From: Deltaproteobacteria bacterium
Lineage (GTDB): Bacteria; Desulfobacterota; Deferrimicrobia; Deferrimicrobiales; Deferrimicrobiaceae
Direction: 5' to 3'
NCBI GenBank assembly: GCA_016218975.1
Contig: JACRCO010000053.1
Location: forward strand, 15,523 to 79,522
Length of the DNA stretch: 64,000 bases
Under the pieces are notes generated by a model. The model worked only from the letters and a program-made list of their open reading frames with translations. It did no database searches and was not told the DNA's origin. Both the position numbers and the translations under genes were made by a program. Positions 16,526 to 48,216 of the stretch are shown here, piece by piece (position 1 is the stretch's first letter; every line of letters starts with the position of its first letter).

Positions 16526-16529
16526 AACG

Positions 16530-18126: not shown

Positions 18127-19395
18127 TCAGTCCTTCGCGTGGCACTTGTTGCAGAACACACGCTGATACGTCGCAAACTGTGTTACCGGCCTGTCATAGT
18201 ATGCCGTCTTCCACTCGGCCATCGTCCGGCCGCGGTGCTGGAGCGGTGCACGGGAACTGGTCATGGCGGGGTTGTCGCTTCCCAGGTAATTCGAAGCGAC
18301 TGTCATGAATTCATAGCCGTTGTCGTAGCGAAGCATTTCCGCCACGCCGGAGGCATGCGCCCTGTGGCAGGACAGGCACATGACCTGGTCGGTGCTTCCC
18401 GGACCCGCTTTGAGGGCGGAGGAGCCGTTGTTTCCGGCAAGAGCCGCAAGGGCCGTGTAATCGCCGCTGTTCGTCGCGAACGGAGCAAGGGACGAGAACG
18501 CGGTCGCCGAGGTTCCGGTCAGGTCGCCGGATTTTACATAGGAGTTGTAGTTGGCTGCAATGGTGCTGCCGAGCGATTCATCGACCGGGTGCACGTAGTT
18601 GCCGCTGGAATGCATGGCGCCGTGGCAGGTCGCGCACCACTGCCCCCAGGTTACGTGCCCGCTGGCCGTGGCGACACCGTATGCTACGCGGACCTGGTTG
18701 TCGGCCTCGGTCTGGTTGTAGGACGACGGGGCCTTGGCGGCGGGAACGCCGTTGAAGGTTATCCCGTCTTTCGTGTATCCCGCGCCGGCCAGGAGCCTGT
18801 ACACGCCGACCGCCTCGGTCGCCGTAGGCTCGTTGCTGGTGCCGTTATAGGAACCGGAAGCCTTTATGGGTGCTCCGGTCTTCGCGATCGTGCCGCTCTG
18901 GAGTCTCCTGTACTGGCCGTGAGGGTCATGGCAGGAATTGCAGGCGAGCTGCGCGGAGGGGAATGTCCCGCCCGGGGCCGCGGCATTGATCGGATCCACT
19001 ACGTATCCGAAGTCGCCCGCGATGATGTTGTGGCCGTGGATCGCGCCATCCTCGGTATTGGTAGTACCCTGATACGTATAGGTGTAGGTCTTCCTCAGCC
19101 AGCCGAAGTCGCCGCCGGGAGTCCGGTTCACGGGCGACACGCCGTCGCCCATGGCGGAGGCGGTGGTGCTGATATGGTAGCTCGACAGCGTGGGCCCGTC
19201 GTGGCAGGTAAGACACGTGGAGCTCTGGTCCCCTCCGACAAGCAGGAAGGACCCGCCAGCCTTGGGGCTGTGCATGCTGTGGCAGCCTTCGCACTCGGCG
19301 ACGCCGCCCGAATGGAACGCGTAAGCCGTGGTGCCCATTCCGACCGCAAAAAGCGCGGCCGATAGAACGATAAGTGTGATCTTTGCCGCTTTCAT
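18127..19395 (-). CDS. omcS: OmcS-family hexaheme c-type cytochrome (nanowire-type)
   Basis: The mature N-terminus AFHSGGVAECEGCHSMHS matches my recollection of G. sulfurreducens OmcS (FHSGGVAECEGCHTMH). Conserved TPGGDFGW, GHNI, CNSCHDPHGQYRR, CLSCHRAHASG, YQRVFCNKCHAKD. Six CxxCH motifs. RBS GGAGGAGAA. Confidence 0.85.
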   Translation of the reverse strand: MKAAKITLIVLSAALFAVGMGTTAYAFHSGGVAECEGCHSMHSPKAGGSFLLVGGDQSSTCLTCHDGPTLSSYHISTTASAMGDGVSPVNRTPGGDFGWLRKTYTYTYQGTTNTEDGAIHGHNIIAGDFGYVVDPINAAAPGGTFPSAQLACNSCHDPHGQYRRLQSGTIAKTGAPIKASGSYNGTSNEPTATEAVGVYRLLAGAGYTKDGITFNGVPAAKAPSSYNQTEADNQVRVAYGVATASGHVTWGQWCATCHGAMHSSGNYVHPVDESLGSTIAANYNSYVKSGDLTGTSATAFSSLAPFATNSGDYTALAALAGNNGSSALKAGPGSTDQVMCLSCHRAHASGVAEMLRYDNGYEFMTVASNYLGSDNPAMTSSRAPLQHRGRTMAEWKTAYYDRPVTQFATYQRVFCNKCHAKD

Positions 19396-19417
19396 TTCTC
19401 CTCCTTCAGTTCTCCGG

Positions 19418-19500
19418 CAGCCCGGCCGTCCTTGCCTAACGCAAGCACCCGTTGGCTTTGTGCCCCCGCCTTGCGACAGGTTTACCTTTTTCGGAGGAGT
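19418..19500 (-). promoter_or_regulatory. GEMM-I (c-di-GMP/cGAMP class) riboswitch candidate in the omcS-like leader
   Basis: Minus-sense GGUAAACC-UGUC[GCAA]GGCGGG-GGCACAAAGCC aligns with the GEMM-I P1 (GNRA tetraloop) and the conserved GGGACGCAAAGCC region. A P2 hairpin GCUUGC-GUUAG-GCAAG follows. The RBS follows directly. Confidence 0.65.
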
Positions 19501-19599: not shown

Positions 19600-20589
19600 T
19601 CATTGCCGTCCCCCTTCCGTTCCGTAGGAAGACAGAGAAAAAACTGAAACCCCCCGGTTTCTCAACTGCGTCACGTACAGCTTTCCCGAATTGCCCACGG
19701 CCACTTCGTTCGGCCGAATCAGGTTCCAGGGTTTCTCTCCCCGGTATCCGAACTCCTGGACGAACCTGAATTCCCTGTCGAACACCATCACGACGCTGCG
19801 AAGCCGCTCGACCACCAGGTAATTGCCTTCGTCGTCGACCGCTATGCCGCTTATGACTCCGAACATTCCGGGAGCGGAACCGGACTTGCCGAAAGAGACG
19901 ATCAGCTTCCCTTCCGGCGACACTACGTACGCCTTGAAATGCACGGCGACCGTGAACAACATGTTCCCCGAACGATCCACGCTGAAACCGAAGATTTCGG
20001 TGGTCAGCCTGTCCTTCTCGGGAACATCGACGATCCGGCCGAAGTCATAACCTTTTTGGAATTTGCCGTTTCGATCGGTGACTATCGCCTGCATCCTGCT
20101 CGTGCTCACCAGGAGCAATTCCCCGCCGCGCATAAACATGCGGTTCGGGCAGAAACCATAAAAATCGCCCGGAAGACCGCCGATCCTGACCGTACCTTTC
20201 AGATCTCCGCGGTAATTGCACTTCGAAATCCAGTAATCGGGACCGTCTGCGGGGTGGCTGAAATCGAAGGAAAGGAGAAGCAGGTCACCCTTTTCATCGA
20301 CGGCGATATCGTAAATCGTGCCGAGCGCCCGATTATCGCCGAACCAGAACACTTCCATGCCGGTTTCGTTGAAAACCTTTACGATTCCGCGGTCAAGGAC
20401 GTATACCTCATCCCTTGCCCGGTCCACGTGAAGCCTTACATCGCTATAAGGAATCTTTCCCGAAAAATTAGAAAGGTTGTAAAGGTACGCGGACTTTACG
20501 TTCGTTGCGAACGCCGGGAAGGAACAAACCAGCAGAAGAAAGAAAGCCGGCAGAATCCTGATCGCTTGTTTTTTGTTGTAACTCCTCAT
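19600..20589 (-). CDS. NHL-repeat protein, secreted
   Basis: Signal peptide MRSYNKKQAIRILPAFFLLLVCSFPAFA. NHL-like repeats (GNYLVVERLRSVVMVFD, GKLYVTQLRNRGVSVF). Confidence 0.8.
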   Translation of the reverse strand: MRSYNKKQAIRILPAFFLLLVCSFPAFATNVKSAYLYNLSNFSGKIPYSDVRLHVDRARDEVYVLDRGIVKVFNETGMEVFWFGDNRALGTIYDIAVDEKGDLLLLSFDFSHPADGPDYWISKCNYRGDLKGTVRIGGLPGDFYGFCPNRMFMRGGELLLVSTSRMQAIVTDRNGKFQKGYDFGRIVDVPEKDRLTTEIFGFSVDRSGNMLFTVAVHFKAYVVSPEGKLIVSFGKSGSAPGMFGVISGIAVDDEGNYLVVERLRSVVMVFDREFRFVQEFGYRGEKPWNLIRPNEVAVGNSGKLYVTQLRNRGVSVFSLSSYGTEGGRQ

Positions 20590-20817
20590 GGCGAATCGTT
20601 ATCAGCAAGCCATATGCCAATCCAAATATAGGCATATTGGCCTTATATAACGACATGTTATGAGTTGCAGATTTCCGAAGGGACCGTTTTACGGGGAAAT
20701 AACGAGTGCAGCTTGGGGTTTTCACCGATGCCGGCTGATTTCAACAAACTGTCATATTTTTGACGCTTTGATATAAATTCCCACTATCGACCTTCCGAAA
20801 TATCCACGGGAGGCGCC

Positions 20818-22086
20818 ATGAAAACAATTTCGGACACCCCCTTATCGGCGGCATTCGTCATGACTGCACTTCTGGTTGCCTTCCCCATTCATCGAGCGGC
20901 AGCGTTCCACGCAGGAGGCGTGGGTGAGTGCTCAGGATGCCACTCCTCCCACAGCGCGGGGGCAAACAATCCCTTCCTTCTCGTTTCGGGCGACCCGAGT
21001 TCCACATGCCTCATGTGCCACATGCAGGCAGGAGAAACAGCCCCGAATGCGCATCACGTGGCAACCGACGAGTCGGACATGCCCTCAGGATCCCCTCCCG
21101 TACAGTTGACCCCCGGCGGAGATTTCGGATGGCTTAAGAAAAATTACAAATGGAATGCGGCCGACGGAGGGCCGGGCGGACAGAGCGCCGGCGAGCGGCA
21201 CGGGCATAACATCGTGGCAGCCGTTTACGGATTCGCGGCGGACACCACGCTGACGGCCGCCCCGGGGGGCGCCTACCCCGCAGCCGGTCTGTCCTGCACA
21301 AGCTGCCATGACCCCCACGGAAGATATCGCCGCCTGGCGGACGGAACCATACAATCCAAGGGATCGCCGGTAGTCGATTCTGGGTCGTACAAAACCAGCC
21401 CGGATCCCACGGAGACGACTGCGGTCGGCGTTTACAGGATGCTCGGCGGCAAGGGATACTCAAGGCCCGGGGCAAGCGAAACGTTCAACTTCGATCCTCC
21501 CGCGGCTGTCGCCCCGCCGGATTACAACCGGTCCGAAAGCGGTTCCGACACGCGGGTCGCCTACGGCGGCGGCATGTCGGAATGGTGCACGAATTGCCAC
21601 GGAGCCTACACCGGGAACCGCAACGCGCCCGGCCACCCGGCTGGAAGCCTCGTCAAGATGACGCCTCGCGCCGTCTCGAATTACAACGCATACGTGTCCT
21701 CCGGAAACGTCACCGGAACTTCTTCGACCGCCTACACGTCCCTCGTGCCGTTCGAAATGGGCACTTCCGATTACGCTCTCCTGAAAAAAGCGGCATCCAC
21801 GGACGGTTCGATGAAAGCGGGGCCGGATACCAACTCCAACGTGATGTGCGTCTCCTGCCACCGGGCGCACGCCTCCGCATGGGACCAGGCGGCCCGCTGG
21901 AACATGAAATCCGAATTCATCCTTTACAACGGAGACTATCCGGGCGCGGACAGGACCGATCTGCCCTTACGCATGTCACAGGGTCGCACGAAGACGGAAA
22001 CCAGGCGCGCTTACCATGAAAGACCGCCGATCGCTTTCGCGAGCTACCAGCGGACACTCTGCAACAAGTGCCACACCATGGATTGA
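20818..22086 (+). CDS. OmcS-family hexaheme c-type cytochrome, paralog
   Basis: AAFHAGGVGECSGCHSSHS, LTPGGDFGWLKK, GHNIVA, CTSCHDPHGRYRR, CVSCHRAHAS, YQRTLCNKCHTMD. RBS GGGAGG. Six CxxCH motifs. Confidence 0.85.
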   Translation: MKTISDTPLSAAFVMTALLVAFPIHRAAAFHAGGVGECSGCHSSHSAGANNPFLLVSGDPSSTCLMCHMQAGETAPNAHHVATDESDMPSGSPPVQLTPGGDFGWLKKNYKWNAADGGPGGQSAGERHGHNIVAAVYGFAADTTLTAAPGGAYPAAGLSCTSCHDPHGRYRRLADGTIQSKGSPVVDSGSYKTSPDPTETTAVGVYRMLGGKGYSRPGASETFNFDPPAAVAPPDYNRSESGSDTRVAYGGGMSEWCTNCHGAYTGNRNAPGHPAGSLVKMTPRAVSNYNAYVSSGNVTGTSSTAYTSLVPFEMGTSDYALLKKAASTDGSMKAGPDTNSNVMCVSCHRAHASAWDQAARWNMKSEFILYNGDYPGADRTDLPLRMSQGRTKTETRRAYHERPPIAFASYQRTLCNKCHTMD

Positions 22087-33935: not shown

Positions 33936-35339
33936 CTATCGCGGGTAGTTGACCGCGTACGATTTCGTCGCATGGCATGTCGGAGTGCAGCTTCCGCCGC
34001 CTCCGCCCGGGACGAAGCTCAGGATCCCCGGGCTCCTCCCTGTTGCTATAAGCGCCGGGAACTGCGGCGAGCCGTGGGAATCGTGGCATGCGTAGCACGG
34101 GATGTTCCGCTCTCCGACGTGGAAAGCGTGCCCCCTCGTCGAGGATGGGGGGTTGAACCGGCTCGCCTGCTGCTCCGGCGCCGATGAAAACGGATTCGCA
34201 TACGTCTCGAAGTTGTGGCAGAGGAAACAGAGCTCCTGCCTGGTGACGACGCGGTTGAAGCTTCGTGCGTCGTACGCCCTGCGGAGCAGGTTGGGGAACT
34301 GCGATCCGTGCGGCCCTTTAAGGTTCGAATCGTCGGAGCCGTGGCAGTCGGCGCAATGGATGACGCTCATTGCGTTCCTCCCCGCCACGAACGCTGCCGG
34401 GTTGATCCCCGTGTTTTTCCCCTGTGCTTCCACCGGATGGAAGGAGGCGTTGTTCACGTTGAACAAACGGGCCATGTCCTGCTCGCCCGGCGGCTGGTTC
34501 GTCCACGACGAGTGGCACTTGAAGCAGATCTCGTATTCCAGCACCGGGGTGCTTACGTCGTTCGCAGGACGGTACTCGTAGAAAGGAATGGTCCCAGCGG
34601 CTCCGTTCACGACCCTTATGCGGCTCACCCTCGAGTTGCGGTTGGAGGCCGCAGGCGGGGCCGGCGGCAAGGGGTCCGCGGAAACGGCGTGTGCGTTGTG
34701 GCAGTCGGCGCATTCCGCATGCCGGTTGCCGCCGACGTAGGAAAAGAGCGCAGGGTCGCCTCCCTCGCCGGCACGGTGTTTTCCGGCCGTAATGACCGCG
34801 GGGTGGCTGTACGGCTTGCGGATCTCGCGCGCGATGTCGCGGAACGAGGGGTCTCCGTCGTGGCAGGCCGTGCAGAGGCTTTCCTCCCGTGCGACCATCT
34901 GGCTCGGTATCGCTCCCCGACTGTCCTGGCGGCCATGGGGGTCGTGGCAGTTCAGGCATTTGCCCGCTGCGCCAGCCTCCCTCCTCGAAGGCGGATACGG
35001 TCCCGGCCAGACCGTGCGTCCGTCGGTGCGATGGTTCGATGATTCGTAAGCGATCCGGCCGGGGTAGGTGCCGGCTATATTTTCGTTCTGGTGGCACGTA
35101 AAACAGAGTTCGTTGTCGTTCTCCCGCCAAAGCGCCTTGGGAAACCTGGCCTGGGCGTCTTCGTCCACGTGGCAATGGTTGCACCCGCCCCTGGATATCG
35201 CAGGGTCGCGCAGAACGCCCGTGACGGGGTTTCCGTGCCCGGTTTCGGCGTAAACACCCGCGGCCGCCGGCAAGGCACAGACCGTCCCCGCCATGATCGC
35301 GATCGCGAAGTTTACGAGCGCATGCCGCCTGCGGCTCAT
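33936..35339 (-). CDS. Multiheme cytochrome c (nine CxxCH plus one CxxxCH)
   Basis: ORF trimmed to ATG 35339 (MSRRRHALVNFAIAIMAGTVCALPAAAG). Motifs include CNHCH, CFTCH, CLNCHDPH, CTACHDG, CADCHNAH, CFKCH, CADCHGS, CFLCH, CYACHDSH and CTPTCH. Confidence 0.85.
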   Translation of the reverse strand: MSRRRHALVNFAIAIMAGTVCALPAAAGVYAETGHGNPVTGVLRDPAISRGGCNHCHVDEDAQARFPKALWRENDNELCFTCHQNENIAGTYPGRIAYESSNHRTDGRTVWPGPYPPSRREAGAAGKCLNCHDPHGRQDSRGAIPSQMVAREESLCTACHDGDPSFRDIAREIRKPYSHPAVITAGKHRAGEGGDPALFSYVGGNRHAECADCHNAHAVSADPLPPAPPAASNRNSRVSRIRVVNGAAGTIPFYEYRPANDVSTPVLEYEICFKCHSSWTNQPPGEQDMARLFNVNNASFHPVEAQGKNTGINPAAFVAGRNAMSVIHCADCHGSDDSNLKGPHGSQFPNLLRRAYDARSFNRVVTRQELCFLCHNFETYANPFSSAPEQQASRFNPPSSTRGHAFHVGERNIPCYACHDSHGSPQFPALIATGRSPGILSFVPGGGGGSCTPTCHATKSYAVNYPR

Positions 35340-35368
35340 GCCCGTGGCGATCCTCCTTCCGGGCGCGT

Positions 35369-36379
35369 CTATCGGTTGTGGCACTGCTGGCACCCCGCTA
35401 TCGAATCGGCGGGCCTACCGGGTTCCTTGTACGGCCACACCAAGCCCTTCCGATATTTCCCGCCGTGCGCCAGGTGGCAGCTTCCGCACATGACCTGGTT
35501 GCTTGCCGACACGGTTTTCGACGAGGCGAAATCGACCGCCCCGGCCGCCTGGAACCGCAGCCTCGGCACTCCTTCCACAAGGTCGCCCGTCGCAGTTCCG
35601 AAGCCGGCCCCCGAGCCGTCCGCCCAGTGGGCCGGATCCGTCGGCCACCCGGAGGGATATCCCGCTCCGTCGATCGGAACGTCGGAAAGATGGTGGAGCC
35701 GGTTGCCCGGCAGGTTCACGCTCGACTTCAGCCGGTCGTGGCACTCGGCGCACCATGCGGACGTTCCGGCCTTGTATCCTTCGTTCGACTCCTTGTATGC
35801 GGCGGCCGTGGCCGCGGCCGACGGAGGATCGCCGGGAGGCGCCTCCCTGAATACGTCCTTTCCCATCTCCGTTCCGATCCCCTGCCCTCCCGCCGGCGCG
35901 GTGAGAACGTTCCTGTAGTTGGGGGTCCCATGCGGGTCGTGGCAGGAGGCGCAAGTAAGGGTCGCGTTCGAAAGGGTGCTGAAAGGGACGGACGTCGAAT
36001 TAATCCCGAGATCGTGCCCGTTCTGGTTGGCGGCGCCTCCGCTGTTGGAGAAAGATCCGGCCCCGGAGTGCTCGTCGCCGCTTCCCGAATACATCGTCAC
36101 GGGTTCGAGGACGTCGGGAGCCTTGGGGTCGCTGCCGTCGTGGCAGAAAAGACAGAGCTTGTTGGTGGTGGCCCGGACCAGGAGCCTGGGAAACGGCCCT
36201 CCCGGCTCCACCTTCGCGGGCACGCCGCCCGCCTCGCTGTAGTGAAGCGTGTGGCAGTCGCCGCACGGCTGCCGGTTCTTCTGCAGGTCGTGATAGTAGG
36301 CGTGCGACACGTGCCCGGCGGCCAGGAACAGGAAGAGTCCTCCCGCGATCGATCCGCAATACAGGGACGCTCGTCTCAT
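35369..36379 (-). CDS. Hexaheme c-type cytochrome with OmcS-like motif order (family C)
   Basis: Signal peptide, then YYHD...CGDCHTLH, CLFCHDG, CASCHDPHG, CAECHDRL, CGSCHLAHGG, C-terminal CQQCHNR. This parallels OmcS heme-motif order and spacing. Confidence 0.8.
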   Translation of the reverse strand: MRRASLYCGSIAGGLFLFLAAGHVSHAYYHDLQKNRQPCGDCHTLHYSEAGGVPAKVEPGGPFPRLLVRATTNKLCLFCHDGSDPKAPDVLEPVTMYSGSGDEHSGAGSFSNSGGAANQNGHDLGINSTSVPFSTLSNATLTCASCHDPHGTPNYRNVLTAPAGGQGIGTEMGKDVFREAPPGDPPSAAATAAAYKESNEGYKAGTSAWCAECHDRLKSSVNLPGNRLHHLSDVPIDGAGYPSGWPTDPAHWADGSGAGFGTATGDLVEGVPRLRFQAAGAVDFASSKTVSASNQVMCGSCHLAHGGKYRKGLVWPYKEPGRPADSIAGCQQCHNR

Positions 36380-38346: not shown

Positions 38347-40515
38347 CTATTCCTTTGCCGCGGGGTCGACCCGGCCGGGCTGCGCCGGTTTCAGGAAGAA
38401 TGGTCTTTTATCCGAGCCGTCGCTGTTCATGACGAACAGGCGCTCGTCGTTCTCATCCAGCGAGACGTAAACGATGGTCCCTTCCTCCGGAAGAAGCGCG
38501 GGGAATATCGCTCCCGTCTCCGTCAGCGGCGCCGGCTGGCCCCCCTCCGCCTTCACGGCGAATACGTTGGGAATTCCGTTATGCAAGGCCGTGAATATGA
38601 CGTGCTCGTCAGTCGCATCGAAAAACGGCCGGTGGGTATATTCCGGCTGGAACACCTGGAACTGGCTGTCCACCTCGCTGGAATGAAGTTTTTTCGTTTC
38701 CGTTCCGTCGGCGTTCGATGCGATGAGCTCGCGAACGACCTTCTTCCCGTCGTAAACTGTAAAGGTGTATCCGATCTTTTTCCCGGCCGCGGACCAGAAC
38801 GGATGGGAAGCCGTGGACGGAGGCCTGTCCTCGCCCTTGTTGCTCTCCGCGAACGATGTCACGCGAACCCTGCCGGTCCCGTCTCCCTTCATCGTCCAGA
38901 CATCGACCCCGTCCGTGAATGCGATCTTCTTCCCGTCGTTGGACCACTTCGGCTGAAGGTAAAGCTCGGCCGCGACCTCAGGGGCCGAAGGATAGCGCAG
39001 ATCGCTCAACCGGAACGCATTGTCCGACGCCGTCAGCATGTACAGGCCCGGCGTCTCGCCGTATCTCGGTATGGCGCTTACAAGGACCTTGTCGTCCTGG
39101 ATGGAAGCATCGGCGTCGAGATAGGACCTGAGATCGCCATTGTTGGGAAAATCGATCGGGCCCTTCTCCGAGAAGGCGTGCAGCCCCCTTGCCGAAAACA
39201 CAAGGAGCCCCTCGCTGCGCGGAAGCCAGAATATTCGGGTGTCGCCTTCAAGCGCGAAACCGGGATAAGAAGCCGATTCCTCTCCCGCGATACCCGCGAC
39301 CTTCAAGAATTCGACCCCTCCCTCGTTGGTGAAGAAGGCCACCTTCGTCGCGTCCGGAGAAGGCACTGGCATCCATGCGGAAGGCCTGCTCTTCGCGAGC
39401 GGTTTTACGCTTCCCGTAATCCCGTCAAGTAGGTAGAGCTCGGCGGAGCCGCTCCTCTCCGAAACCCCGGCGAGGACGATGTCTTTTCCGCCGGGGGAAA
39501 GCGAAAAATCGGACAGGTGCAGTTCGGGGGGCGAAATCCTCCTCTCGATGCCGGATGCCATATCAAGCCGCCAGAGCGCGTTGACGCCCACCTGCCTGTT
39601 GCCCGACTTCCTGGTCTCATGCGGCGCCCGCGGTTTTTCCCTGTCATCGTCCACCTTCGCGCCTGCGGTGTTGTCGGCTGCGACGGCGTTATCCGCAGGC
39701 ACGATCTCTATATCCTGCCCGATGTAAAAAATCCCCTTGCCGTCGACATCCCATGCGATACGTCGCCCCGCGAGCCTCGGGGCCTTGAGGACCGTGACCT
39801 CCTTGCCGGACAGATCCATGGTGCGGATCTCGAACTCGCCGGGGCTGGTGGGGAACGGATAGGCTATGAGCCCCGCCTTGTTCGAATAGGCCGGTGTCCC
39901 GATGTACTTGTTCAGAAGCGGCTTGCTCTCCATATCGGACAGGTCGATCTCCCAGATTCCGACTCCGTACGTCTTGCCGGCCTCGTAATAGACCTTTCGG
40001 CTGTCCGGGCTAAAAAAAACCGATCGGACGCTTATCTTTTCGGTCACCGCCTCGACCCTCGATCCGTCCGAGGTGCCGATCCACAGGTCCCGTACGTTTT
40101 GCTGTTCCCCGGGGGCCGTGAAAGCGAAAAGCTTCCCGTCCGGCGACTCGATCGGGATCCCTGCGTTGGGAGGGATACCGGGAATCCGTTCTTCCGGCCT
40201 GCCTCCGTCGATGCCGATCCGTAAAACCTCCTCGTACCCCTTGCGCCTGGCGGAGAACAGGATGGTTTTTCCGTCCGGCGCCCAGCGGAAATGAGAAACC
40301 CCGCGAGTCGTAAGCCGCCGTTTTCCGGAACCGTCGGCGTTCATCACCCAAAGGTCCGCAGGCGTATGCAATGTGGAGGAAAGAAAGGCTATCTTGCTTC
40401 CGTCGGGAGAGTGGACAGGGCTTCTGCCTCCGTTGGGTTCGGCGCTGTTGGCCGGGTTGAACGCAGACATGACAATTATAAAGATAACGGTTAACGACAG
40501 CAGATACTTTTTCAT
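38347..40515 (-). CDS. TolB-like periplasmic protein with multiple PD40/WD40-like beta-propeller repeats
   Basis: Signal peptide MKKYLLSLTVIFIIVMSAFNPANSA. Many SPDG.KIAF-type PD40 repeats (SPDGSKIAFLS, APDGKTILFSA, SPDGKLFAFTA, SPDSRKVYY, SPDATKVAFF, SNDGKKIAFTD). Confidence 0.8.
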   Translation of the reverse strand: MKKYLLSLTVIFIIVMSAFNPANSAEPNGGRSPVHSPDGSKIAFLSSTLHTPADLWVMNADGSGKRRLTTRGVSHFRWAPDGKTILFSARRKGYEEVLRIGIDGGRPEERIPGIPPNAGIPIESPDGKLFAFTAPGEQQNVRDLWIGTSDGSRVEAVTEKISVRSVFFSPDSRKVYYEAGKTYGVGIWEIDLSDMESKPLLNKYIGTPAYSNKAGLIAYPFPTSPGEFEIRTMDLSGKEVTVLKAPRLAGRRIAWDVDGKGIFYIGQDIEIVPADNAVAADNTAGAKVDDDREKPRAPHETRKSGNRQVGVNALWRLDMASGIERRISPPELHLSDFSLSPGGKDIVLAGVSERSGSAELYLLDGITGSVKPLAKSRPSAWMPVPSPDATKVAFFTNEGGVEFLKVAGIAGEESASYPGFALEGDTRIFWLPRSEGLLVFSARGLHAFSEKGPIDFPNNGDLRSYLDADASIQDDKVLVSAIPRYGETPGLYMLTASDNAFRLSDLRYPSAPEVAAELYLQPKWSNDGKKIAFTDGVDVWTMKGDGTGRVRVTSFAESNKGEDRPPSTASHPFWSAAGKKIGYTFTVYDGKKVVRELIASNADGTETKKLHSSEVDSQFQVFQPEYTHRPFFDATDEHVIFTALHNGIPNVFAVKAEGGQPAPLTETGAIFPALLPEEGTIVYVSLDENDERLFVMNSDGSDKRPFFLKPAQPGRVDPAAKE

Positions 40516-40711: not shown

Positions 40712-42052
40712 TCAAAATCCCTTGACGTAAGCTTTTGTCCCGCCCTTCTGATGGCACTTTCCGCACCCGAATGCAGGGTTGTCCCCGATCGAGACCGCGC
40801 CCGTGAAATCCTGCTGCCCGGCGGGGAGAAACGAGTGGGAGTTCGTGTCCCACCGGGTCATGTTTTCGTAGTTCGAAGCGTGCGCCTTGTGGCATGTGAG
40901 GCACATGATACGGTCCGTAGCCGCAAGCGTTGCCGGATCGGAGGCGGAGGCGACGTTCGCCCTGACGGAGAAGTCGGCATCCCCCTTAACCAAAGGGTAT
41001 TTCCAGTCATAACCAACGGGGTTCGGGTTGTTCCCCTGTGAATTCGTAACGGCCGCATTGTAGGTATCGATGCCGTACTTGCTTCCGGTCGATCTATCCA
41101 TAGTCACGTTGGTCGGGTGCCGTATCCATGCATCGCCCGACCGGGTCTTGTCGTTGTCGGCGTTCCTGTTCTCGCCGTTTCCTCCGTGGAAGTCGCCATG
41201 ACAGACGGCGCAGAACGAGGAGAAGCCGCCCCGGTAGACGTTCTTGTTCGTGTCCGACTCGGCCGTGTTCGGGTACAGTTTCGCGCCTTCGAGCGGGTTA
41301 CCGTCCTTGCGAGTATTCAAATACGTGGTCTCGTTCGGGCCTCCCCGTATGTCGCCGCGCGAGTTGGAAAGGATCGGCTCGTATCCCGGCGCGGTCGTCC
41401 CTTCGTTACCCCCATAGCTCTCGACGCCTTTCGCCGCCGTCTCGCTCCCCGTGTGAACGATCCCGTTCACCTTGCGGCGCAACTGTCTCCATGCCGCCAC
41501 GTTTTCACCGAACCGGTTGTGGGGATCGTGGCACGAGGCGCAGTCCCAGTCGTTCGTCGAAAATCCTCCTCCGGGAGACGCCGTCAACACCGGGTCCGAA
41601 GGCATGACCATCGACTGAACCCCCCTGCTCTTCCCCGGGTTGTGTCCCTTCTTCGGATCGTTGAAGCTCAAATGGAAATCCCCGCCCGGCAACGCGTAAT
41701 TCGACGGGATGTTCCCGGCGCTGCTCATCACCGCCGGGGCCTTGAATGCGGTGCTCGCGGGATAGAGATGGCATTGCAGGCATATGTCGGTGACCGTTGG
41801 CTGCTTGAGAAGTCTCGCGTACGGCCCGGGATTCCCCGTGGTCCCGGCGATGATCGGAGCGCCGTCCTCGCTGTTGTGTATCGTATGGCAGTCGTAGCAA
41901 ACCAGCCCGTCGTACGAGTGGTAAAGCCGCGTGTTCACGCTCCCGGTTATATAGTCGATAAAAGCGTATGCCGGAGGCGCGGCGCCGAAGCAAAGCGCGG
42001 CCATCGAACAAGCGAGGACGAAGCCGGCGGCGGCTCTGGTTCTTTTATTCAT
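40712..42052 (-). CDS. Hexaheme c-type cytochrome, divergent OmcS-related family B
   Basis: ORF trimmed to ATG 42052 (MNKRTRAAAGFVLACSMAALCFGAAPPAYA). YHSYDGLVCYDCHTIHNS, LPGGDF...KGHNPGK, CASCHDPHNRFG, CAVCHGDFHG, CLTCHKAHASNYENMTRWDTN (compare OmcS CLSCHRAHASGFDSMTRFN), C-terminal GCGKCHQKGG. Six CxxCH motifs. Confidence 0.8.
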   Translation of the reverse strand: MNKRTRAAAGFVLACSMAALCFGAAPPAYAFIDYITGSVNTRLYHSYDGLVCYDCHTIHNSEDGAPIIAGTTGNPGPYARLLKQPTVTDICLQCHLYPASTAFKAPAVMSSAGNIPSNYALPGGDFHLSFNDPKKGHNPGKSRGVQSMVMPSDPVLTASPGGGFSTNDWDCASCHDPHNRFGENVAAWRQLRRKVNGIVHTGSETAAKGVESYGGNEGTTAPGYEPILSNSRGDIRGGPNETTYLNTRKDGNPLEGAKLYPNTAESDTNKNVYRGGFSSFCAVCHGDFHGGNGENRNADNDKTRSGDAWIRHPTNVTMDRSTGSKYGIDTYNAAVTNSQGNNPNPVGYDWKYPLVKGDADFSVRANVASASDPATLAATDRIMCLTCHKAHASNYENMTRWDTNSHSFLPAGQQDFTGAVSIGDNPAFGCGKCHQKGGTKAYVKGF

Positions 42053-42138
42053 GATCACCCCCCGGAGGTGGTGAAGCCCTGCGGGCGTGGAGTCACGCCC
42101 GCAGGGCGGCATGAAACATTCTCAAATGGACAGGCGAT

Positions 42139-43536
42139 TTAGAACCCCTTCACGTACGCCTTCGTCCCGCCCTTCTGGTGGCACTTTCCGCAACCGAAGG
42201 TCGGGTTGTCGCCGACTGATGCTCCGGCAACCCAGGCGGTTCCGTTCCAGGTCTGGCCTTCCACATCCGCTCCCCCGTTCGGAAGGAACGCGTGGCCGTT
42301 GGTATCCCATCGTGTCATGTTCTCGAAACTGGATGCGTGCGCCTTGTGGCAGGTGAGGCACGAAAGCCGATCGTTGCCAGACAGCGTGGCGGGATCGGCG
42401 GCCGAAGCCGAAGTGCTCAGCACGGCGAAGTCCGCGTCCGCCTTGATGAGCGGATACCGGAAGTCGTAGCCGACCGGGTTAGGGTTGTTTGCCTGGGCGT
42501 TGGTGACGGTGGCCTTATAAGTGGTGATGCCGTATTTCCTGCTTGTCGGCGTCATATCCATTTTCAGGTTGGTCGGATGCTTCATCCAGACACCGGCGGT
42601 TTGGGTCTTGTCTGTCCCGCCTTCGGTCTGCTCGGTGCCGTGGAAATCCCCGTGGCATGCGGAGCAGAAGGAGGAGAAGCCGCCCTGGTAGACGTTCTTG
42701 TTCGTGTCGCTGTAATCGACAAAGAGGTCCGCGCCCTGGAGATCCTTGCCGTCCTGGCGCTTGTTGACGTAGGTCGTTCCCTGGATGTCGCCGCGGGAGT
42801 TCGACTTGATAGGCTCGTAAGCGGTGTTCTGGGTCTCGCCGCCCGCCGATGTCTCCACGCCGAACGATGTTACGTTGCCGGTAACCACGACGCCGTTCAC
42901 CTTCCGCTTGATCTGCCGCCATGCCGTGTAGCTGCCGCTGAACCGGGAGTGCATCCCGTGGCAGGAGTGGCAGGACCACTCGCCGTCCGTGATGGTGCCG
43001 CCCGGAGGCGCGTTCCCGAGAACCGTGTCAGCCGCCATCAGTTTGGAGGTGGGGCTTGCGGATCCCTTGGTATACGCCGGGTTGTGCCCTTTCTTCGGGT
43101 CCAAATTGGACTGATAGAAGTCGCCCGCAGGCATGGAGATGCCGGCCGGAATGGCGCCGGTGAGCGTCATGACGATCGGGGCGGTCCAGCCTGTGTTCTC
43201 CACGCCCACGAGATCGGCGGATGCGGAAGTGTTGTACCCCTGCTTGTGGCAGGAAAGGCACATATCGGTCCAGTCGCCCTTTTTCAGCAATTCGCGGTAA
43301 GACCCGCCCGCGCCGGGATTCCAGTCCGTGGCGCCGCCGTCCTGTAGCTTGTTACCGGATATGCGGGCGCCGCCATCGCTGTTGTGCAAGGTGTGGCAGT
43401 CCGTGCAGACGAGGCCGTCATAGGAGTGATACTGTGCCGTATTGGGACCGGCGCCCGTCGTCTGGCTGGGCACCGCCGCAATCGCCGGCGCGGCCGTCAG
43501 GGCCGCAATCGCGATCGATAGCAAGAATTTTTTCAT
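42139..43536 (-). CDS. Hexaheme c-type cytochrome, family B paralog
   Basis: ATG 43536 with GGAGGA RBS. MKKFLLSIAIAALTAAPAIAA signal peptide. Same motif set as the 40712..42052 gene. The 867-aa track ORF is a read-through extension. Confidence 0.85.
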   Translation of the reverse strand: MKKFLLSIAIAALTAAPAIAAVPSQTTGAGPNTAQYHSYDGLVCTDCHTLHNSDGGARISGNKLQDGGATDWNPGAGGSYRELLKKGDWTDMCLSCHKQGYNTSASADLVGVENTGWTAPIVMTLTGAIPAGISMPAGDFYQSNLDPKKGHNPAYTKGSASPTSKLMAADTVLGNAPPGGTITDGEWSCHSCHGMHSRFSGSYTAWRQIKRKVNGVVVTGNVTSFGVETSAGGETQNTAYEPIKSNSRGDIQGTTYVNKRQDGKDLQGADLFVDYSDTNKNVYQGGFSSFCSACHGDFHGTEQTEGGTDKTQTAGVWMKHPTNLKMDMTPTSRKYGITTYKATVTNAQANNPNPVGYDFRYPLIKADADFAVLSTSASAADPATLSGNDRLSCLTCHKAHASSFENMTRWDTNGHAFLPNGGADVEGQTWNGTAWVAGASVGDNPTFGCGKCHQKGGTKAYVKGF

Positions 43537-43556
43537 TGCATCCTCCGAAGTTTTCT

Positions 43557-43640
43557 CTGGCGGCCCGGCCGTCCTTCCATCGAAGGATCCGTGGGCTTTG
43601 CGTCCCCCGATTACTCGAGGTTTGCCTTTTTCAGAGGATT
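43557..43640 (-). promoter_or_regulatory. GEMM-I (c-di-GMP/cGAMP class) riboswitch candidate in the leader of the family-B hexaheme gene
   Basis: Minus-sense GGCAAACC-UCGA[GUAA]UCGGGG-GACGCAAAGCC aligns base-for-base with the Vc2-type GEMM-I P1 and core. P2 hairpin UCCUUC-GAUG-GAAGGA covaries with the 19418..19500 copy. The P1 overlaps the stop codon of the upstream NHL gene. Confidence 0.7.
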
Positions 43641-44675
43641 GTTGGGTGTTGACTGCGAAGCGATCCGTCGTTCCTGCGAATTTTCCGTGCACGCCGTTTT
43701 CGTTTCCTGCACCACCTCCTTCTCCTTGAGAAATCGAACCTTGAACACCTGCACACGCTTGAGCGTGTTCTCCAGTACGTAGATACGGTCCCTTCCGTCC
43801 GAGGCGATCCGGGAGGGCATGTAGAACTGGCCGTACCCCTCCCCGATCTTTCCGAACTCCTCGATGAACTCCCCCTCCCGGTCGAAGCAGGAGACCTTGT
43901 TGGTGACCGTGCTGACTACGAAGATATGGCCCGCATCGTCGGCGGCGATGCCGATGGGACGGTCGAGCTGGCCGTAGAGAACGCCGGGCGATCCGAAACG
44001 CTTGAATGTTTTTCCCCTGGGGTCGTAGATCACGACGGAATAGGGGCGCATGTCCGTAAAGAGAAACCGGCCGTTCCGATCGACGGCCATCCCGTAAATG
44101 GTGTTCGGCGCCCCCTCGCCGGAGATGGGGATCTCCTCGTGCGCCACGCCGTCGGGGTCCACCTTGACCACCCCCCCCCGCGTCTTGAGCACGTAGATTC
44201 CGCCGCTCCCCCCGTTGGCGATGGCCATTGGGCGGACGGCGCTTCCGGGCGCGTCTACGATCCCGGGGAGAAGAAGCGCGTCCAGGGGGTTCCCGCGGAA
44301 ATCGAGGATGCTGATCTTCGGGCTGTTCACGTGGCCGAGAAACATCCTTCCCTCGGCGTCCACCGCGACCATCCTCGCCGACCCTTCCTTCTCGCCGGGG
44401 TCGATCGCCTGCACGAACATGCCGTTCCGGTCGTATATAAGGATCTTCCGGATGGCGGCGTCCGCGATGTAGAGTTCGCCGGTTTTCCTGTCGACGAAGA
44501 TGTCCATCGGCTCCCGGAGCCTGTCGGAGCGCCCGCCTGCGTACTCGATCGCATAGAGGAACTCGACGCTCAGGAGGCCGCGATCCGTTCCCGCGGCCGG
44601 GGAGGGCGTTGCAGGCCATGGAATCATGAGGATCGCAAGGATGAGCAGAGCGGGAATTTTCAATCTCGACGGCAT
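43611..44675 (-). CDS. NHL-repeat protein, secreted
   Basis: Probable start ATG 44675 (MPSRLKIPALLILAILMIPWPATPSPAAG). NHL-like repeats (GELYIADAAIRKILIYD, GRFLFTDMRPYSVVIYD, GHIFVVSTVTNKVSCFD, DRIYVLENTLKRVQVF). Confidence 0.8.
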   Translation of the reverse strand: MPSRLKIPALLILAILMIPWPATPSPAAGTDRGLLSVEFLYAIEYAGGRSDRLREPMDIFVDRKTGELYIADAAIRKILIYDRNGMFVQAIDPGEKEGSARMVAVDAEGRMFLGHVNSPKISILDFRGNPLDALLLPGIVDAPGSAVRPMAIANGGSGGIYVLKTRGGVVKVDPDGVAHEEIPISGEGAPNTIYGMAVDRNGRFLFTDMRPYSVVIYDPRGKTFKRFGSPGVLYGQLDRPIGIAADDAGHIFVVSTVTNKVSCFDREGEFIEEFGKIGEGYGQFYMPSRIASDGRDRIYVLENTLKRVQVFKVRFLKEKEVVQETKTACTENSQERRIASQSTPNNPLKKANLE

Positions 44676-44786
44676 GACGCCCAAAGGTTTTGCATCGGGC
44701 ATGCCGCTTGCCCACGCCACCTGCAACCGCCCGATAATTCAAAGGGTTTAAAAAATCAGTCGAGACCGGTTACCCTCCTCGAAATC

Positions 44787-44876
44787 CGAAATGAACAAAC
44801 CTTTTGTTCATTTCGACAACGTATCGAAACGGAAACAATTGCGGCGGAAGGTTACGGATTCGGAAACGTGCGCAAT
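44787..44876. promoter_or_regulatory. 29-bp perfect palindrome plus three GGAAAC direct repeats in a divergent intergenic region
   Basis: CGAAATGAACAAA-cct-TTTGTTCATTTCG (44787..44815), then cgaaacGGAAACAATTGcgg and ttcGGAAACgtgcgcaat. GGAAACAATTG recurs as its reverse complement at 54343..54353. Confidence 0.3.
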
Positions 44877-44973
44877 ATCGCCCTCGTCGGGATATCGACC
44901 CGAATTTTCAGGAGATAATCGGCTTTTGAAAGCAGGAATTCCATCCGGCACGCCGATTGCGTATAAAAACGGC

Positions 44974-45370: not shown

Positions 45371-46759
45371 CTATTCCAACCCGAATTTCTTTATCTGGTA
45401 CCTCAGCGACTGATACGTGACGTTCAGGAGTTTCGCCGCCACCGACTTGTTCTGCCTGCTTCTGTCCAGCGCCTGCACGATGAAATCCCTTTCCACGTCA
45501 TCGAGCGAGATTCCCGATTCGGGCAGCAGGAACCGCACTTCGTTTCCGCTTTCCGGTGACGGCAGCGTGCGAACCATCTCCTTCGGCAGGTGTTCCGGCC
45601 GGATCGTATCCGCATTCTCCAGCACGACGAGCCTTTCGATCACGTTTTTCAATTCCCTGACGTTTCCGGGCCACCGGTAGGTCGTCAGCATTTTCGCGGC
45701 CTCCGGGGAAAATCCTTCCACGTTGCACTTGTTATATCTTTTACGGAAGTAGGAAAGGAAATGCTCCGCAAGGACGGGAATATCCTCCCTACGCTCCCTC
45801 AACGGAGGGATGTTGATGGAAAACGCGTTGAGCCGGTAATAGAGATCCATGCGGAAATCGCCCGTTTCGATCCCCTTCACCAGGTCCCGGTTCGTCGTGG
45901 CGATGACGGCGACGTCGACCGGGATCTCCGACCCGCCCCCGATCCTGCGCACCGCTTTCCGCTCCACGATCCGCAACAGCTTCGTCTGGCAGTTCTGCTT
46001 CATGTCGCCGATCTCGTCGAGAAGAATCGTCCCCTTGTTCGCCATTTCAAAGACGCCTTTTTTATCCGCCTTCGCGTCGGTGAAGGCGCCCTTTTCGTAC
46101 CCGAAGAGCTCGCTCTCCAGGAGAGATTCCGGCAGGGCGGTGCAGTTGACGGGGATGAAAGGCGCCCGCCGGGATGCTTCCTCCCCGTGGATCGACCGGT
46201 GGAGGAACCTCGCGATCACTTCCTTCCCCGTGCCGCTTTCCCCGGTGATAAGCAGCGTGGAAACACGCGCCTGCACCATCTTCCGGATCTTTTCCCGGAT
46301 CTCGCCCGCGGCATCGGAAGCGCCTATGAACTCCGCTTCCGAAAGGTCCGAATGGACAAGCCGGAGGGACTGGACCTCCCGCTCGAGCCGGTCTTTCTCG
46401 AAAACCTTGTCGATGACGATTCCGACCTCTTCGAGGTTGAACGGCTTGGTCAGGTAGTCCACGGCGCCCAGTTTCATCGCCTTGATCGCCGTTTCGGCGG
46501 TGTCGTCCGAGGTAAGCATGATCACCTTCGTATCGATCCGGCTGGCGGTGATTTCCTGGAGGATCTCGATGCCGTTCTTCACGGGCAGCTTTATGTCCAG
46601 GAGGACGATGTCGGGAAGGAACGAGTTGACCAGCCCGAGGACGTCATCGCATTTCGTGTCGGGTTGGATCTCGTATCCCTGCTTCCTGAACCATCTCGAC
46701 AGCGTGGCGACGATCAGCGGATCGTCGTCGACGAGCATTATCTTTCCTCTCGCCGTCAT
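45371..46759 (-). CDS. Sigma-54-dependent response regulator (NtrC family), paralog of the 22991..24379 gene
   Basis: Receiver (IMLVDDDPLIV), AAA+ (GESGTGKE, ESELFGYEKGAFTDA), C-terminal HTH. Confidence 0.9.
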   Translation of the reverse strand: MTARGKIMLVDDDPLIVATLSRWFRKQGYEIQPDTKCDDVLGLVNSFLPDIVLLDIKLPVKNGIEILQEITASRIDTKVIMLTSDDTAETAIKAMKLGAVDYLTKPFNLEEVGIVIDKVFEKDRLEREVQSLRLVHSDLSEAEFIGASDAAGEIREKIRKMVQARVSTLLITGESGTGKEVIARFLHRSIHGEEASRRAPFIPVNCTALPESLLESELFGYEKGAFTDAKADKKGVFEMANKGTILLDEIGDMKQNCQTKLLRIVERKAVRRIGGGSEIPVDVAVIATTNRDLVKGIETGDFRMDLYYRLNAFSINIPPLRERREDIPVLAEHFLSYFRKRYNKCNVEGFSPEAAKMLTTYRWPGNVRELKNVIERLVVLENADTIRPEHLPKEMVRTLPSPESGNEVRFLLPESGISLDDVERDFIVQALDRSRQNKSVAAKLLNVTYQSLRYQIKKFGLE

Positions 46760-48216
46760 CCCGGTTTCCCTTCTTCCTCCACCGTTTTTCGCGGAAGAAC
46801 GATCCGGACAAGGATGCCCCCCGCCGGATTGTTCCCCACGGTGATATCGCCGCCGTGCTGCCCGATGAGCTGCCTGCAGATCGCGAGTCCAAGACCGGTC
46901 CCCTTCGATTTCGTGGTGAAGAAGGGCTGGAAAATCTTGCAGATCATGTCCGGGTCGATTCCCTTGCCCGTGTCCGTGATGTCGATCAGGATGGAATCGC
47001 CGGAGACGTCGTAGTGGGTTCCCACGGCGAACATGCCCCCGCCCGGCATGGCGTCGATGGAATTCAGGAGCAGGTTCAGGAAGACCTGCTGGAGCTGGAC
47101 CGGGTCGGCCATCGTCAAGGGAATCCGGTCGTCAAGGTCCTTGACGATCCGGATGCCGTTTTGCCCTTCGGGGGAAGAACGGTTGGATTTCAGGTAGAAA
47201 TCTATCGTCGTGGCGATGATTTCGTTCAGATCGACGCTCTCCCACTGCGGCTTGGGAGGCTTGGCGAAGTTGAGGAAATTCTTCATCAGGGTTTCGAGCC
47301 TGCCCACTTCGTCGACGATCTGCGAAAAGAGGATCCGGTCCTCGTTCCGCAGCGTCAGTTCCTCGGAGAGCAGGTTCACCGCCGCCTTGATCCCGGCGAG
47401 CGGGTTCTTCACCTCGTGCCCCAATCCCGCCGCCAATTCCCCGACAACCGCCATCTGTTCCGTCCGCTGCATCTGGAGCATCTGCTCCTTGAGGGATCTC
47501 GCCATTTTGTTGAAGGAAGCAGACACCTCCCCGAACTCGTCCTTCAGTCCCTCGATCCGGTAATCGAGATCGCCGCTCTCCAGTCTCCGCGTGGCGGTGA
47601 GAAGCTCGTTCATGGGGCGCGCCAGTCCCCGTATGGACACATACGCGAAGATGACCGAGAAGACGGGTCCCGCCGCGATAAGGACGAAGAGCATCGTCTT
47701 CATCAGCGCAATCTGGCGGAACGCCACCTGGGTGTTCGACGAAAGGTTCCTGCTCGTCAGGGCGACTATGCTGTTCACCTTTTCGATCAGCCCCTGCCCC
47801 GTTACGATGGCGCGGTCCTTCTCGGTCTCCAGCCGGTCGCTCCCTGCGCCGAGCGTCAACACGCGGCTTAAGGCATCCTTGTAATTCTCCGTCATGCGCT
47901 TCAGGTCGTTCAGGTTTTCCAACACCTCGGGCGAGTGGTGGCACGTGAAACACTTGTCGGCCACTTTCCCCATGTGAATGCTGTGGGTCACGATGGTATC
48001 GACGCTGCTGGCGTACCGCGTTCCGCTCAAGGTGAGGTCGGACTGCACGCCCTTGATATGGATCAGCAGGTGTTCCCGGAGAATTTCGACCTGGTGCAGC
48101 TTGATGAGCTTGTCGAGCTTCGAAGTCGCCCGTTCGACGGTGACGATGATGTAGATTCCGCAAAGCGTGAACAGGAAACAGATTACACCCAGGGCGATGA
48201 TGATCTTCTTTTTCAT
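46756..48216 (-). CDS. Sensor histidine kinase with CxxCH in the periplasmic loop, paralog of the 24376..25830 gene
   Basis: N-terminal MKKKIIIALGVICFLFTLCGIYII. Periplasmic KVADKCFTCHHS (about 47938..47952). H-box LAAGLGHEVKNPL, HATPase G-boxes. Confidence 0.85.
   Translation of the reverse strand: MKKKIIIALGVICFLFTLCGIYIIVTVERATSKLDKLIKLHQVEILREHLLIHIKGVQSDLTLSGTRYASSVDTIVTHSIHMGKVADKCFTCHHSPEVLENLNDLKRMTENYKDALSRVLTLGAGSDRLETEKDRAIVTGQGLIEKVNSIVALTSRNLSSNTQVAFRQIALMKTMLFVLIAAGPVFSVIFAYVSIRGLARPMNELLTATRRLESGDLDYRIEGLKDEFGEVSASFNKMARSLKEQMLQMQRTEQMAVVGELAAGLGHEVKNPLAGIKAAVNLLSEELTLRNEDRILFSQIVDEVGRLETLMKNFLNFAKPPKPQWESVDLNEIIATTIDFYLKSNRSSPEGQNGIRIVKDLDDRIPLTMADPVQLQQVFLNLLLNSIDAMPGGGMFAVGTHYDVSGDSILIDITDTGKGIDPDMICKIFQPFFTTKSKGTGLGLAICRQLIGQHGGDITVGNNPAGGILVRIVLPRKTVEEEGKPG

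Follow-up and report, generated by a model that had tools for sequence, protein, structure and literature searches.

In the Vc2 riboswitch of Vibrio cholerae, G20 pairs with Gα of cyclic di-guanosine monophosphate (c-di-GMP), A47 intercalates and C92 pairs with Gβ (PMC6140456, PMC5888326). G20 together with C92 is selective for c-di-GMP: Vc2 binds c-di-GMP at picomolar (pM) concentration and 3',3'-cyclic GMP-AMP (cGAMP) at ~10 μM (PMC6140456). Adenine at position 20 leads to cGAMP or bispecific binding, the mutation G20A rendering Vc2 bispecific (PMC6140456), and A20G turns a Geobacter cGAMP riboswitch c-di-GMP-selective (PMC6456294). Cyclic-dinucleotide riboswitches in front of cytochromes of extracellular electron transfer, OmcS included, are already established in Geobacter. 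The omcST riboswitch of G. sulfurreducens is reported to respond to both cGAMP and c-di-GMP, and deletion of cGAMP synthesis lowers omcST expression 2-3 fold (PMC6456294). Nothing on omcS was found in Tan et al. 2022. Here we analyzed a stretch of 64,000 nucleotides (nt) from contig JACRCO010000053.1 of a Deltaproteobacteria bacterium (assembly GCA_016218975.1, locus tags HY896_; hereafter the window), which carries a riboswitch of the GEMM-I (c-di-GMP-I) class at 43.5 kb and a sister copy at 19.4 kb, both upstream of genes for OmcS-like cytochromes. Judged by sequence, the two elements are homologues of the known Geobacter riboswitch that differ from it at the key specificity position. We estimate a probability of about 70% that the 43.5-kb element is a functional GEMM-I c-di-GMP aptamer between two genes of a σ54-type operon, acting most likely as a translational ON switch.

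Identity and ligand contacts of the two riboswitch copies

A preliminary description of this DNA had proposed a GEMM-I riboswitch from a sequence that corresponds to the minus strand of 43553..43640. Scanning the whole window with Rfam at gathering threshold returned two matches only, 43556..43636 and 19412..19495, both on the minus strand. The former matched RF01051 (c-di-GMP-I) with 62.2 bits (cut-off 35; E 9e-10) over the full length of the model (positions 1-87 of 87), in agreement with the proposal. A custom covariance model that included the closing helix P1 placed the 43.5-kb element at 43553..43637 on the minus strand, with a score of 98.6 bits. No further copies were found with this model in the window or in 38 sources, four weak matches (E 0.03-0.6) being noise. 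The 43.5-kb copy comprises the following features, as judged from Rfam, the custom model, covariation and the contact nucleotides:

43553..43637, minus strand: GEMM-I (c-di-GMP-I) aptamer including P1
43636..43632, minus strand: 5' strand of P1, CUCUG
43626, 43599 and 43560, minus strand: equivalents of G20, A47 and C92, respectively
43625..43600, minus strand: basal GC/GC helix and GNRA hairpin
43614..43611, minus strand: GUAA tetraloop
43597..43562, minus strand: second hairpin (Rfam P2)
43559..43555, minus strand: 3' strand of P1, CAGAG

The sister copy is arranged in the same manner:

19410..19497, minus strand: sister riboswitch copy (Rfam; custom model 88.1 bits)
19499..19493, minus strand: anti-Shine-Dalgarno (anti-SD), CUCCUCC
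19496..19492 with 19416..19412, minus strand: P1, CUCCG with CGGAG
19486 and 19417, minus strand: equivalents of G20 and C92
19404..19398, minus strand: Shine-Dalgarno (SD), GGAGGAG, with the ATG at 19395
18127..19395, minus strand: OmcS orthologue gene, 3' of the riboswitch
19600..20589, minus strand: NHL-like gene, 5' of the riboswitch

For the sister copy (19412..19495), the best Rfam model was the clan member RF03167 (c-di-GMP-I-GGC), at 60.8 bits with a cut-off of 59. The RF03167 consensus has G at the A47 column (GACGCGAA vs GACGCAAA); we infer the meaning of 'GGC' from the consensus lines of the two models. Both window copies have A in this column, and assignment of the sister copy to the 'GGC' variant was rejected on these grounds. 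The top score of RF03167 is probably explained by its inclusion of the outer P1 and a short P2. Note that RF03167 was also the best-scoring model, just above cut-off, for copies in the related loci L001, L007, L011 and L035, all of which have A at this position. Annotation pipelines would probably mislabel such copies as the variant class.

The aptamers of the two window copies were identical in 65 of 85 aligned columns (76.5%). Among their 27 base pairs, 18 were identical, 6 were fully compensatory and 3 had a mismatch in one copy. Paired substitutions had been described for P2. Compensatory change is indeed present, but only one of the six pairs lies in P2, at its tip, where the core CUU/AAG is common to both copies; the GNRA hairpin accounts for three, its basal GC/GU helix for one and P1 for another. 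Likewise, the ~100 nt of conservation that had been noted between the leaders applies to ~105 nt of aptamer and short expression platform, whereas upstream of the anti-SD the leaders could not be aligned.

We gathered loci encoding relatives of the 43.5-kb cytochrome ('family B') from genome and metagenome collections. Rfam detected a c-di-GMP-I-clan aptamer ending ~20 nt before the cytochrome start in L001, L002, L003, L004, L005, L007, L008, L011, L034, L035 and L038, and another ~100 nt upstream of the start in L016. In 278 kb, the custom model identified 14 distinct copies, scoring 63-99 bits, with no other credible match. A MAFFT alignment of the aptamers displaced several rows, and the model-based alignment was used instead. 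Over the 14 independent copies, 91.4% of cells were standard pairs and 15 of 27 pairs had changed on both sides, counts that lean towards the structure to which the alignment was fitted; this bias is mitigated by the direct two-copy comparison and by slid-partner controls, in which moving the 3' partners by 1-3 columns left at most 48% paired. None of 500 shuffles reached the observed covariation. All five helices of this architecture, two hairpins meeting at a three-helix junction that P1 closes, were supported, including the outer P1, in which U-A is replaced by C-G in two sequences. Thus, with respect to the two outcomes named beforehand as refuting a riboswitch, Rfam accepts the region and covariation is evident, both as the six compensatory pairs between the window copies and over the 14 copies.

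No aptamer was detectable with Rfam or the custom model in L036, L037, L039, L041 and L045. The patchy distribution suggests that the riboswitch was repeatedly lost or gained among the relatives. L036 encodes the second-closest family-B gene (71% identity), and its leader (2400-2500) resembles a GEMM element in decayed or variant form (…GGGACGCGAAGGC…), with G at the A47 column and a non-GNRA loop; it gave no match at the Rfam gathering threshold or with the custom model at E<1. L045 (1260-1500) contains the closest relative of the window OmcS orthologue (79% identity) behind an AT-rich leader of 240 nt without riboswitch, indicating that the distribution is patchy even among near relatives. 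Patchiness and the degenerate appearance of the L036 leader are what one would expect if the 43.5-kb match were a chance resemblance or a functionless, decayed relic. However, the E value of 9e-10 over the full model, the intact contact nucleotides, a pattern of covariation rather than decay and the conserved expression platform effectively refute this explanation, to which we assign a negligible probability. The 43.5-kb element is a genuine c-di-GMP-type (GEMM-I) riboswitch.

The ligand-contacting nucleotides were located by Rfam model positions. Positions 11, 38 and 83 correspond to G20, A47 and C92 of Vc2, and because the offset is exactly 9 for all three, the column mapping is valid without alignment by eye. 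The 43.5-kb copy has G43626, A43599 and C43560, and the sister copy has G, A and C at the same columns, bearing out the earlier by-eye assignment of G to position 20 in both. G20 and A47 were present in 14 of 14 copies and C92 in 12, including both window copies; in the two exceptions, L008 and L038, C92 is replaced by U. In the latter leaders (L008:2889-2971 and L038:2416-2498, with duplicates L027 and L040), only four A's precede G20, and such leaders might have a different dinucleotide preference, for example for A in the β site.

An adenine in place of G20 marks the GEMM-Ib subclass. G occupies this position in both window copies and throughout the 14 collected copies. The Geobacter omcS leader, in contrast, has A (GAAAAG-A-GU). 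G20, A47 and C92 thus support a ligand of the c-di-GMP type rather than cGAMP, as had been suggested from G20, and the A20 of the Geobacter leader strengthens this assignment. The same aptamer and platform could nevertheless serve 3',3'-cGAMP or both dinucleotides, as in the Geobacter GEMM-Ib riboswitches of extracellular-electron-transfer cytochromes. Gene order and platform are shared with the omcST leader, the closest homologue to have been studied, which is reported to respond to both (PMC6456294), and contact positions do vary within the clade, as seen from the U at the C92 column of L008 and L038. Given that G20 is invariant here, that in Vc2 it disfavors cGAMP by orders of magnitude, and that its introduction as A20G makes a Geobacter cGAMP riboswitch selective for c-di-GMP, we regard a cGAMP or bispecific ligand as unlikely and favor c-di-GMP. 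A regular-expression scan for GGDEF, EAL and HD-GYP motifs, a weak check restricted to the window, which is part of a 276-kb contig, gave a single HD...GYP match at ~35.7 kb. This candidate for a cyclic-dinucleotide enzyme proved to be false, the match lying in a multiheme cytochrome.

Expression platform, proposed switch direction and candidate operon promoter

The nucleotides flanking the aptamer can form two competing helices, identified from minimum free energy (MFE) folds and duplex energies:

43630..43639, minus strand: anti-SD, AUCCUCUGAA, overlapping the 5' strand of P1
43540..43549, minus strand: SD strand, UUCGGAGGAU, with the core GGAGG at 43546..43542, 5 nt upstream of the ATG (43536..43534)

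The anti-SD can pair either with CAGAG, forming P1, or with the SD strand, and the two pairings are mutually exclusive. All leaders of this design follow the order (A/U)UCCUCUG-AAAAAG-aptamer-GC-CAGAG-AAAA-UUCGGAGGA-N5-8-AUG. Besides the 43.5-kb copy, 12 leaders and that of Geobacter omcS set P1 against anti-SD:SD in the same way. L035 retains the design with a different sequence (anti-SD CCUUCCUCC, SD GGAGGAAGG, P1 CCUCCG/CGGAGG), and the sister copy retains it as CUCCUCC/GGAGGAG, with P1 altered in step (CUCCG/CGGAG).

For the 43.5-kb copy we calculated duplex energies of -6.0 kcal/mol for P1 and -13.1 kcal/mol for anti-SD:SD. All five nucleotides of the SD core were paired in the unconstrained fold, with a probability of 0.00 that the SD is unpaired. 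Forcing aptamer and P1 to form cost 5.9 kcal/mol and raised this probability to 0.41; the corresponding cost for the sister copy was 6.4 kcal/mol. The SD core was fully paired in the MFE structure of 12 of 13 leaders of this design, and the probability of an unpaired SD was ~0.00 in 10 of them. Leaders from the same family of cytochrome genes that lack a riboswitch (11 cases) had a median probability of ~0.72. No intrinsic terminator was found 3' of the aptamer, and transcription attenuation was therefore set aside.

These calculations suggest the following mechanism. In the absence of ligand, the longer anti-SD:SD helix would win and the cytochrome gene would not be translated. Upon binding of c-di-GMP, P1 would be locked beside the ligand pocket, consuming the anti-SD and releasing the SD. 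The few kcal/mol required are well within the binding energy of a ligand bound at nanomolar (nM) to pM concentration, arguing for an ON switch. The element is thus modeled as a switch that probably acts on translation, the ribosome-binding site being freed by the ligand. The proposed direction draws on helix geometry, the covariation of P1 and the in vivo behavior of the Geobacter homologue.

Conversely, the ligand may stabilize a compact fold with anti-SD:SD as the outermost helix, resulting in an OFF switch, or control may be exerted through Rho-dependent termination or mRNA decay. In the MFE fold the aptamer hairpins coexist with the anti-SD:SD helix, which resembles an extended closing stem, and c-di-GMP-I riboswitches of both polarities reportedly exist. 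However, CAGAG follows directly after C92 and covaries with its 5' strand (CUCCG/CGGAG in the sister copy and L035; U·G in L001), as expected only if the short P1 is the ligand-stabilized helix. Moreover, the alternative fold would leave 11 unpaired nt after C92, and in the homologous operon of Geobacter the dinucleotide has an activating rather than a repressing effect. An OFF switch, or control at another level, appears distinctly improbable compared with the translational ON switch.

We searched for promoters with the σ54 pattern NGG[CT]A[CT]-N5-NTGC, which has its GG and GC spaced as in TGGCAC-N5-TTGC and a background of 0.10 per kb per strand:

44691..44706, minus strand: candidate promoter of the operon, a σ54-type -24/-12 box (CGGCATGCCCGATGCA) immediately 5' of the NHL gene
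20604..20619, minus strand: σ54-type box, TGGCATATGGCTTGCT, upstream of the NHL-like gene of the sister copy
43611..44726, minus strand: NHL-repeat beta-propeller gene, upstream of the 43.5-kb riboswitch (open reading frame (ORF), Pfam NHL/DUF5128)

Note that the number of window-wide matches with up to 2 mismatches was that expected by chance (19 vs 18.8), and significance derives only from positional conservation. Of the 13 loci with available sequence, 12 had one σ54-type box that precedes the aptamer by 1060-1240 nt and hence lies directly before the NHL gene, and none of the 13 had such a box between NHL and aptamer. No σ70 promoter was found in 43400..44900. A transcription start site inside the 3' end of the NHL gene, as had been envisaged, is thus unsupported; the conserved σ54-type box is upstream of NHL instead. 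With the promoter in this position the riboswitch appears to be intercistronic, and in the simplest reading of the sequence this placement would suit a translational mechanism. The operon would consist of a σ54-type promoter, the NHL propeller, the riboswitch, the OmcS-like hexaheme cytochrome, its paralogue and a PD40 propeller. Expression thus seems to be controlled in two layers, by two-component/σ54-dependent transcription and by c-di-GMP-dependent translation, with the riboswitch inside a σ54-driven operon. L010 and L028 contain riboswitch-less family-B genes with a σ54-type box (TGGCAC-N5-TTG) ~60-90 nt upstream of the cytochrome start.

Several observations weigh against a c-di-GMP-responsive translational ON switch within this operon. 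Since the Geobacter omcST riboswitch reportedly answers both cGAMP and c-di-GMP, nucleotide 20 may not fully predict selectivity. In the MFE fold the anti-SD:SD helix encloses both hairpins of an intact aptamer, so that thermodynamic folding by itself leaves room for ligand binding to the SD-sequestered form. Forcing P1 frees the SD only in part, with probabilities of 0.41 for the 43.5-kb copy, 0.11 for L007 and 0.30 for L008. Finally, the 43.5-kb σ54 box (CGGCAT-N5-ATGCA) is weaker than consensus and would leave a very short leader to the presumed NHL start, and the 43.5-kb cytochrome gene may have an internal promoter. Aptamer identity, covariation, contact nucleotides and the conserved alternative pairing are computational results, whereas ligand identity, switch direction and co-transcription with NHL are inferred.

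Stop-codon overlap and neighboring genes

The preliminary description had noted that the riboswitch overlaps the stop codon of the NHL gene. This is correct: the NHL ORF (43611..44726, minus strand) ends in GAG-UAA, and the UAA (43613..43611) supplies three of the four nucleotides of the GUAA tetraloop. Within the riboswitch, the 5' part contains the last nine NHL codons (NPLKKANLE) together with the stop. The NHL ORF extends 25-27 nt into the aptamer only in the window and its closest relatives, L002 and L034. In the other ten loci, which have the same riboswitch design, the NHL stop is 7-175 nt upstream of the aptamer. The distance from VQVF to the stop is exactly 47 codons in the window, L002 and L034, and the middle of this tail is strongly diverged. 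Constant length in spite of divergence indicates that the NHL reading frame has been kept.

The maintenance of a frame entering the aptamer in three diverged relatives, and the apparently intercistronic position of the riboswitch, would fit with a regulatory role of the overlap. Ribosomes terminating at the tetraloop UAA would open the anti-SD along with the aptamer's 5' half, thereby coupling cytochrome translation to that of NHL or resetting the switch. In translating NHL they would pass across the anti-SD, P1 and the first hairpin arm, each round unfolding and resetting the aptamer, and cytochrome synthesis would depend on upstream translation as well as on c-di-GMP. Such a translation-coupled intercistronic riboswitch is a doubtful proposition, however. 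The ten loci without overlap show that it is not needed for function, one of the reading frames through a GUAA or GUGA loop inherently meets a stop codon, conserved RNA sequence fixes the last nine codons, and three close relatives may represent a single evolutionary event. We therefore regard the overlap as a probable lineage-specific by-product of the loss of an upstream stop codon.

Between the NHL stop and the leader, a GC-rich hairpin (GCCGGC-NNNN-GUCGGC) without U tract was observed in L001, L003, L005, L011, L035 and L004, situated 5-10 nt 5' of the anti-SD. Its stem varies in sequence by locus with pairing kept, and it is also present in the riboswitch-less L037/L025. In the window this stretch is occupied by the NHL ORF and no such hairpin exists. 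The hairpin may serve RNA processing or stability, or act as a weak terminator.

The genes around the 43.5-kb riboswitch are as follows:

42139..43536, minus strand: regulated gene, 465-residue hexaheme c-type cytochrome of the divergent OmcS-family group family B (ORF, Pfam multiheme domains)
40712..42112, minus strand: second family-B hexaheme paralogue, directly downstream, probable start MNKR at 42052 (ORF, Pfam)
38347..40515, minus strand: PD40/Tricorn-like beta-propeller gene (Pfam PD40)
45371..46759, minus strand: NtrC-type σ54 activator (Pfam Response_reg, Sigma54_activat and HTH_8)
46756..48216, minus strand: adjacent ORF, HAMP/HisKA-type sensor kinase (read from the translation)

The 43.5-kb cytochrome has six CXXCH motifs in the order of OmcS and conserves the CHxxH motif after heme site 1. 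It aligned with OmcS (PDB 6ef8) at E 2.5e-10, collinear over residues 37-429. A 36-member family-B profile matched OmcS at E 2.3e-20; no other protein of solved structure proved to be a meaningful relative. Family B has ~110 members, all from metagenome-assembled genomes or metagenomes, in Deltaproteobacteria, Nitrospirota, Desulfobulbia and Geobacteraceae. In contrast, the gene downstream of the sister copy matched OmcS at E 3.8e-108 and by sequence is a clear OmcS orthologue. The link between cyclic-dinucleotide signaling and nanowire-type cytochromes that had been drawn for both copies is therefore firm at 19.4 kb and looser at 43.5 kb, where the cytochrome is a remote member of the OmcS family. 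For the latter, 'nanowire-type' is suggested by homology and by the neighboring propeller genes.

The second family-B paralogue (40712..42112) has no riboswitch of its own detectable by Rfam or the custom model. The PD40 propeller is the conserved last member of the cassette and follows the cytochrome in L034-L041. Translation of the NHL gene likely starts at an ATG near 44675, opening with the signal-peptide-like MPSRLKIPALLILAIL. A sensor kinase and a σ54 activator are also neighbors in L034, L041 and the Geobacter omcS locus.

Downstream of the OmcS orthologue, the window encodes a YNCE-like beta-propeller (16530..17966, minus strand) and a 756-residue protein (14336..16606, minus strand), for which Pfam gave no match and which is possibly an outer-membrane barrel. 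A second OmcS-like gene without riboswitch is transcribed divergently (20818..22086, plus strand). This layout (14336..17966, 20818..22086) resembles published cytochrome-nanowire clusters. Two further multiheme c-type cytochrome genes (485 and 336 residues; 33936..36379, minus strand) lie between the riboswitch cassettes. On a metagenome contig, group II intron domains (RF02001, RF00029; L033:239-407 and 2156-2238) adjoin a fragment of a family-B gene.

Comparison with known systems

Vc2 (PDB 3irw/3mxh) shares with the 43.5-kb copy the RF01051 family, G20, A47 and C92, and a GNRA tetraloop on the first hairpin. In type-1 members, such a loop docks into a receptor in the second hairpin. The tetraloop is GAAA in Vc2 and GUAA in the 43.5-kb copy, which, when aligned to the Rfam model, lacks the positions of the 11-nt tetraloop receptor in P2. 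The 43.5-kb copy may have a helical CC:GG-type receptor in P2. A Vc2 variant with a GUAA loop binds at ~2 nM instead of pM (PMC5888326), suggesting that the affinity of the 43.5-kb copy may be in the nM range.

The GEMM-Ib cGAMP riboswitches, such as Gs1761 upstream of pgcA, have the same fold and the same theme of cytochrome control. Those of the Gs1761 type have A20 and an intrinsic terminator, and mutations that destabilize the terminator bypass the ligand (PMC6456294). In contrast, the 43.5-kb copy has G20 and no terminator, and sequesters the SD.

The closest described system is the omcS locus of the Geobacter sulfurreducens group (GSU2507-GSU2503 region). Geobacter OmcS (P0233, 95% identical) was retrieved with mature OmcS mostly rebuilt from a PDB alignment. 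The order in this locus (L042/L043) is sensor kinase, σ54-dependent response regulator, GSU2505-like protein, a gap of 245 nt, OmcS and OmcT, which agrees with the published annotation GSU2507-GSU2504 (PMC10599522). The GSU2505-like propeller protein is 40% identical to the product of the NHL-like gene at the sister copy (E 1e-81). Rfam placed a c-di-GMP-I aptamer 24 nt before omcS, which scored 82.4 bits on the custom model. The omcS leader shares the competition of P1 with anti-SD:SD (CUCCG/CGGAG vs UUUCCUCC/GGAGGAAA), the free energy difference for aptamer and P1 being 5.4 kcal/mol and the probability of an unpaired SD rising from 0.00 to 0.46. In the OmcS-like leader of Geobacter sp. DSM 9736 (L044:1388-1475), position 20 is C and a 3-nt linker (GAAC-GU) replaces AAAAAG, with the anti-SD/SD design kept (AUCCUCC / GGGAGGAU).

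The cassette of NHL gene, riboswitch and cytochrome thus reaches well beyond Geobacter, to uncultured Deltaproteobacteria, Nitrospirota/Thermodesulfovibrionia and Desulfobulbia, and it also precedes a second, divergent OmcS-like family. The expression platform is a simple and conserved competition of P1 with the anti-SD:SD helix. G20 outside Geobacter and A20 in the omcS leader fit with cGAMP control as a re-tuning, in the Geobacter lineage, of an older c-di-GMP circuit. These findings should be useful for annotating cytochrome-nanowire loci in metagenomes and will not surprise the specialist. The informative differences from Geobacter are G20, the conserved anti-SD platform, the apparent placement in a σ54 operon, the riboswitch copy before a divergent paralogous family, where in Geobacter the riboswitch controls OmcS itself, and the ORF overlap, the upstream ORF entering the aptamer in the window, whereas in Geobacter the upstream gene ends well before it.

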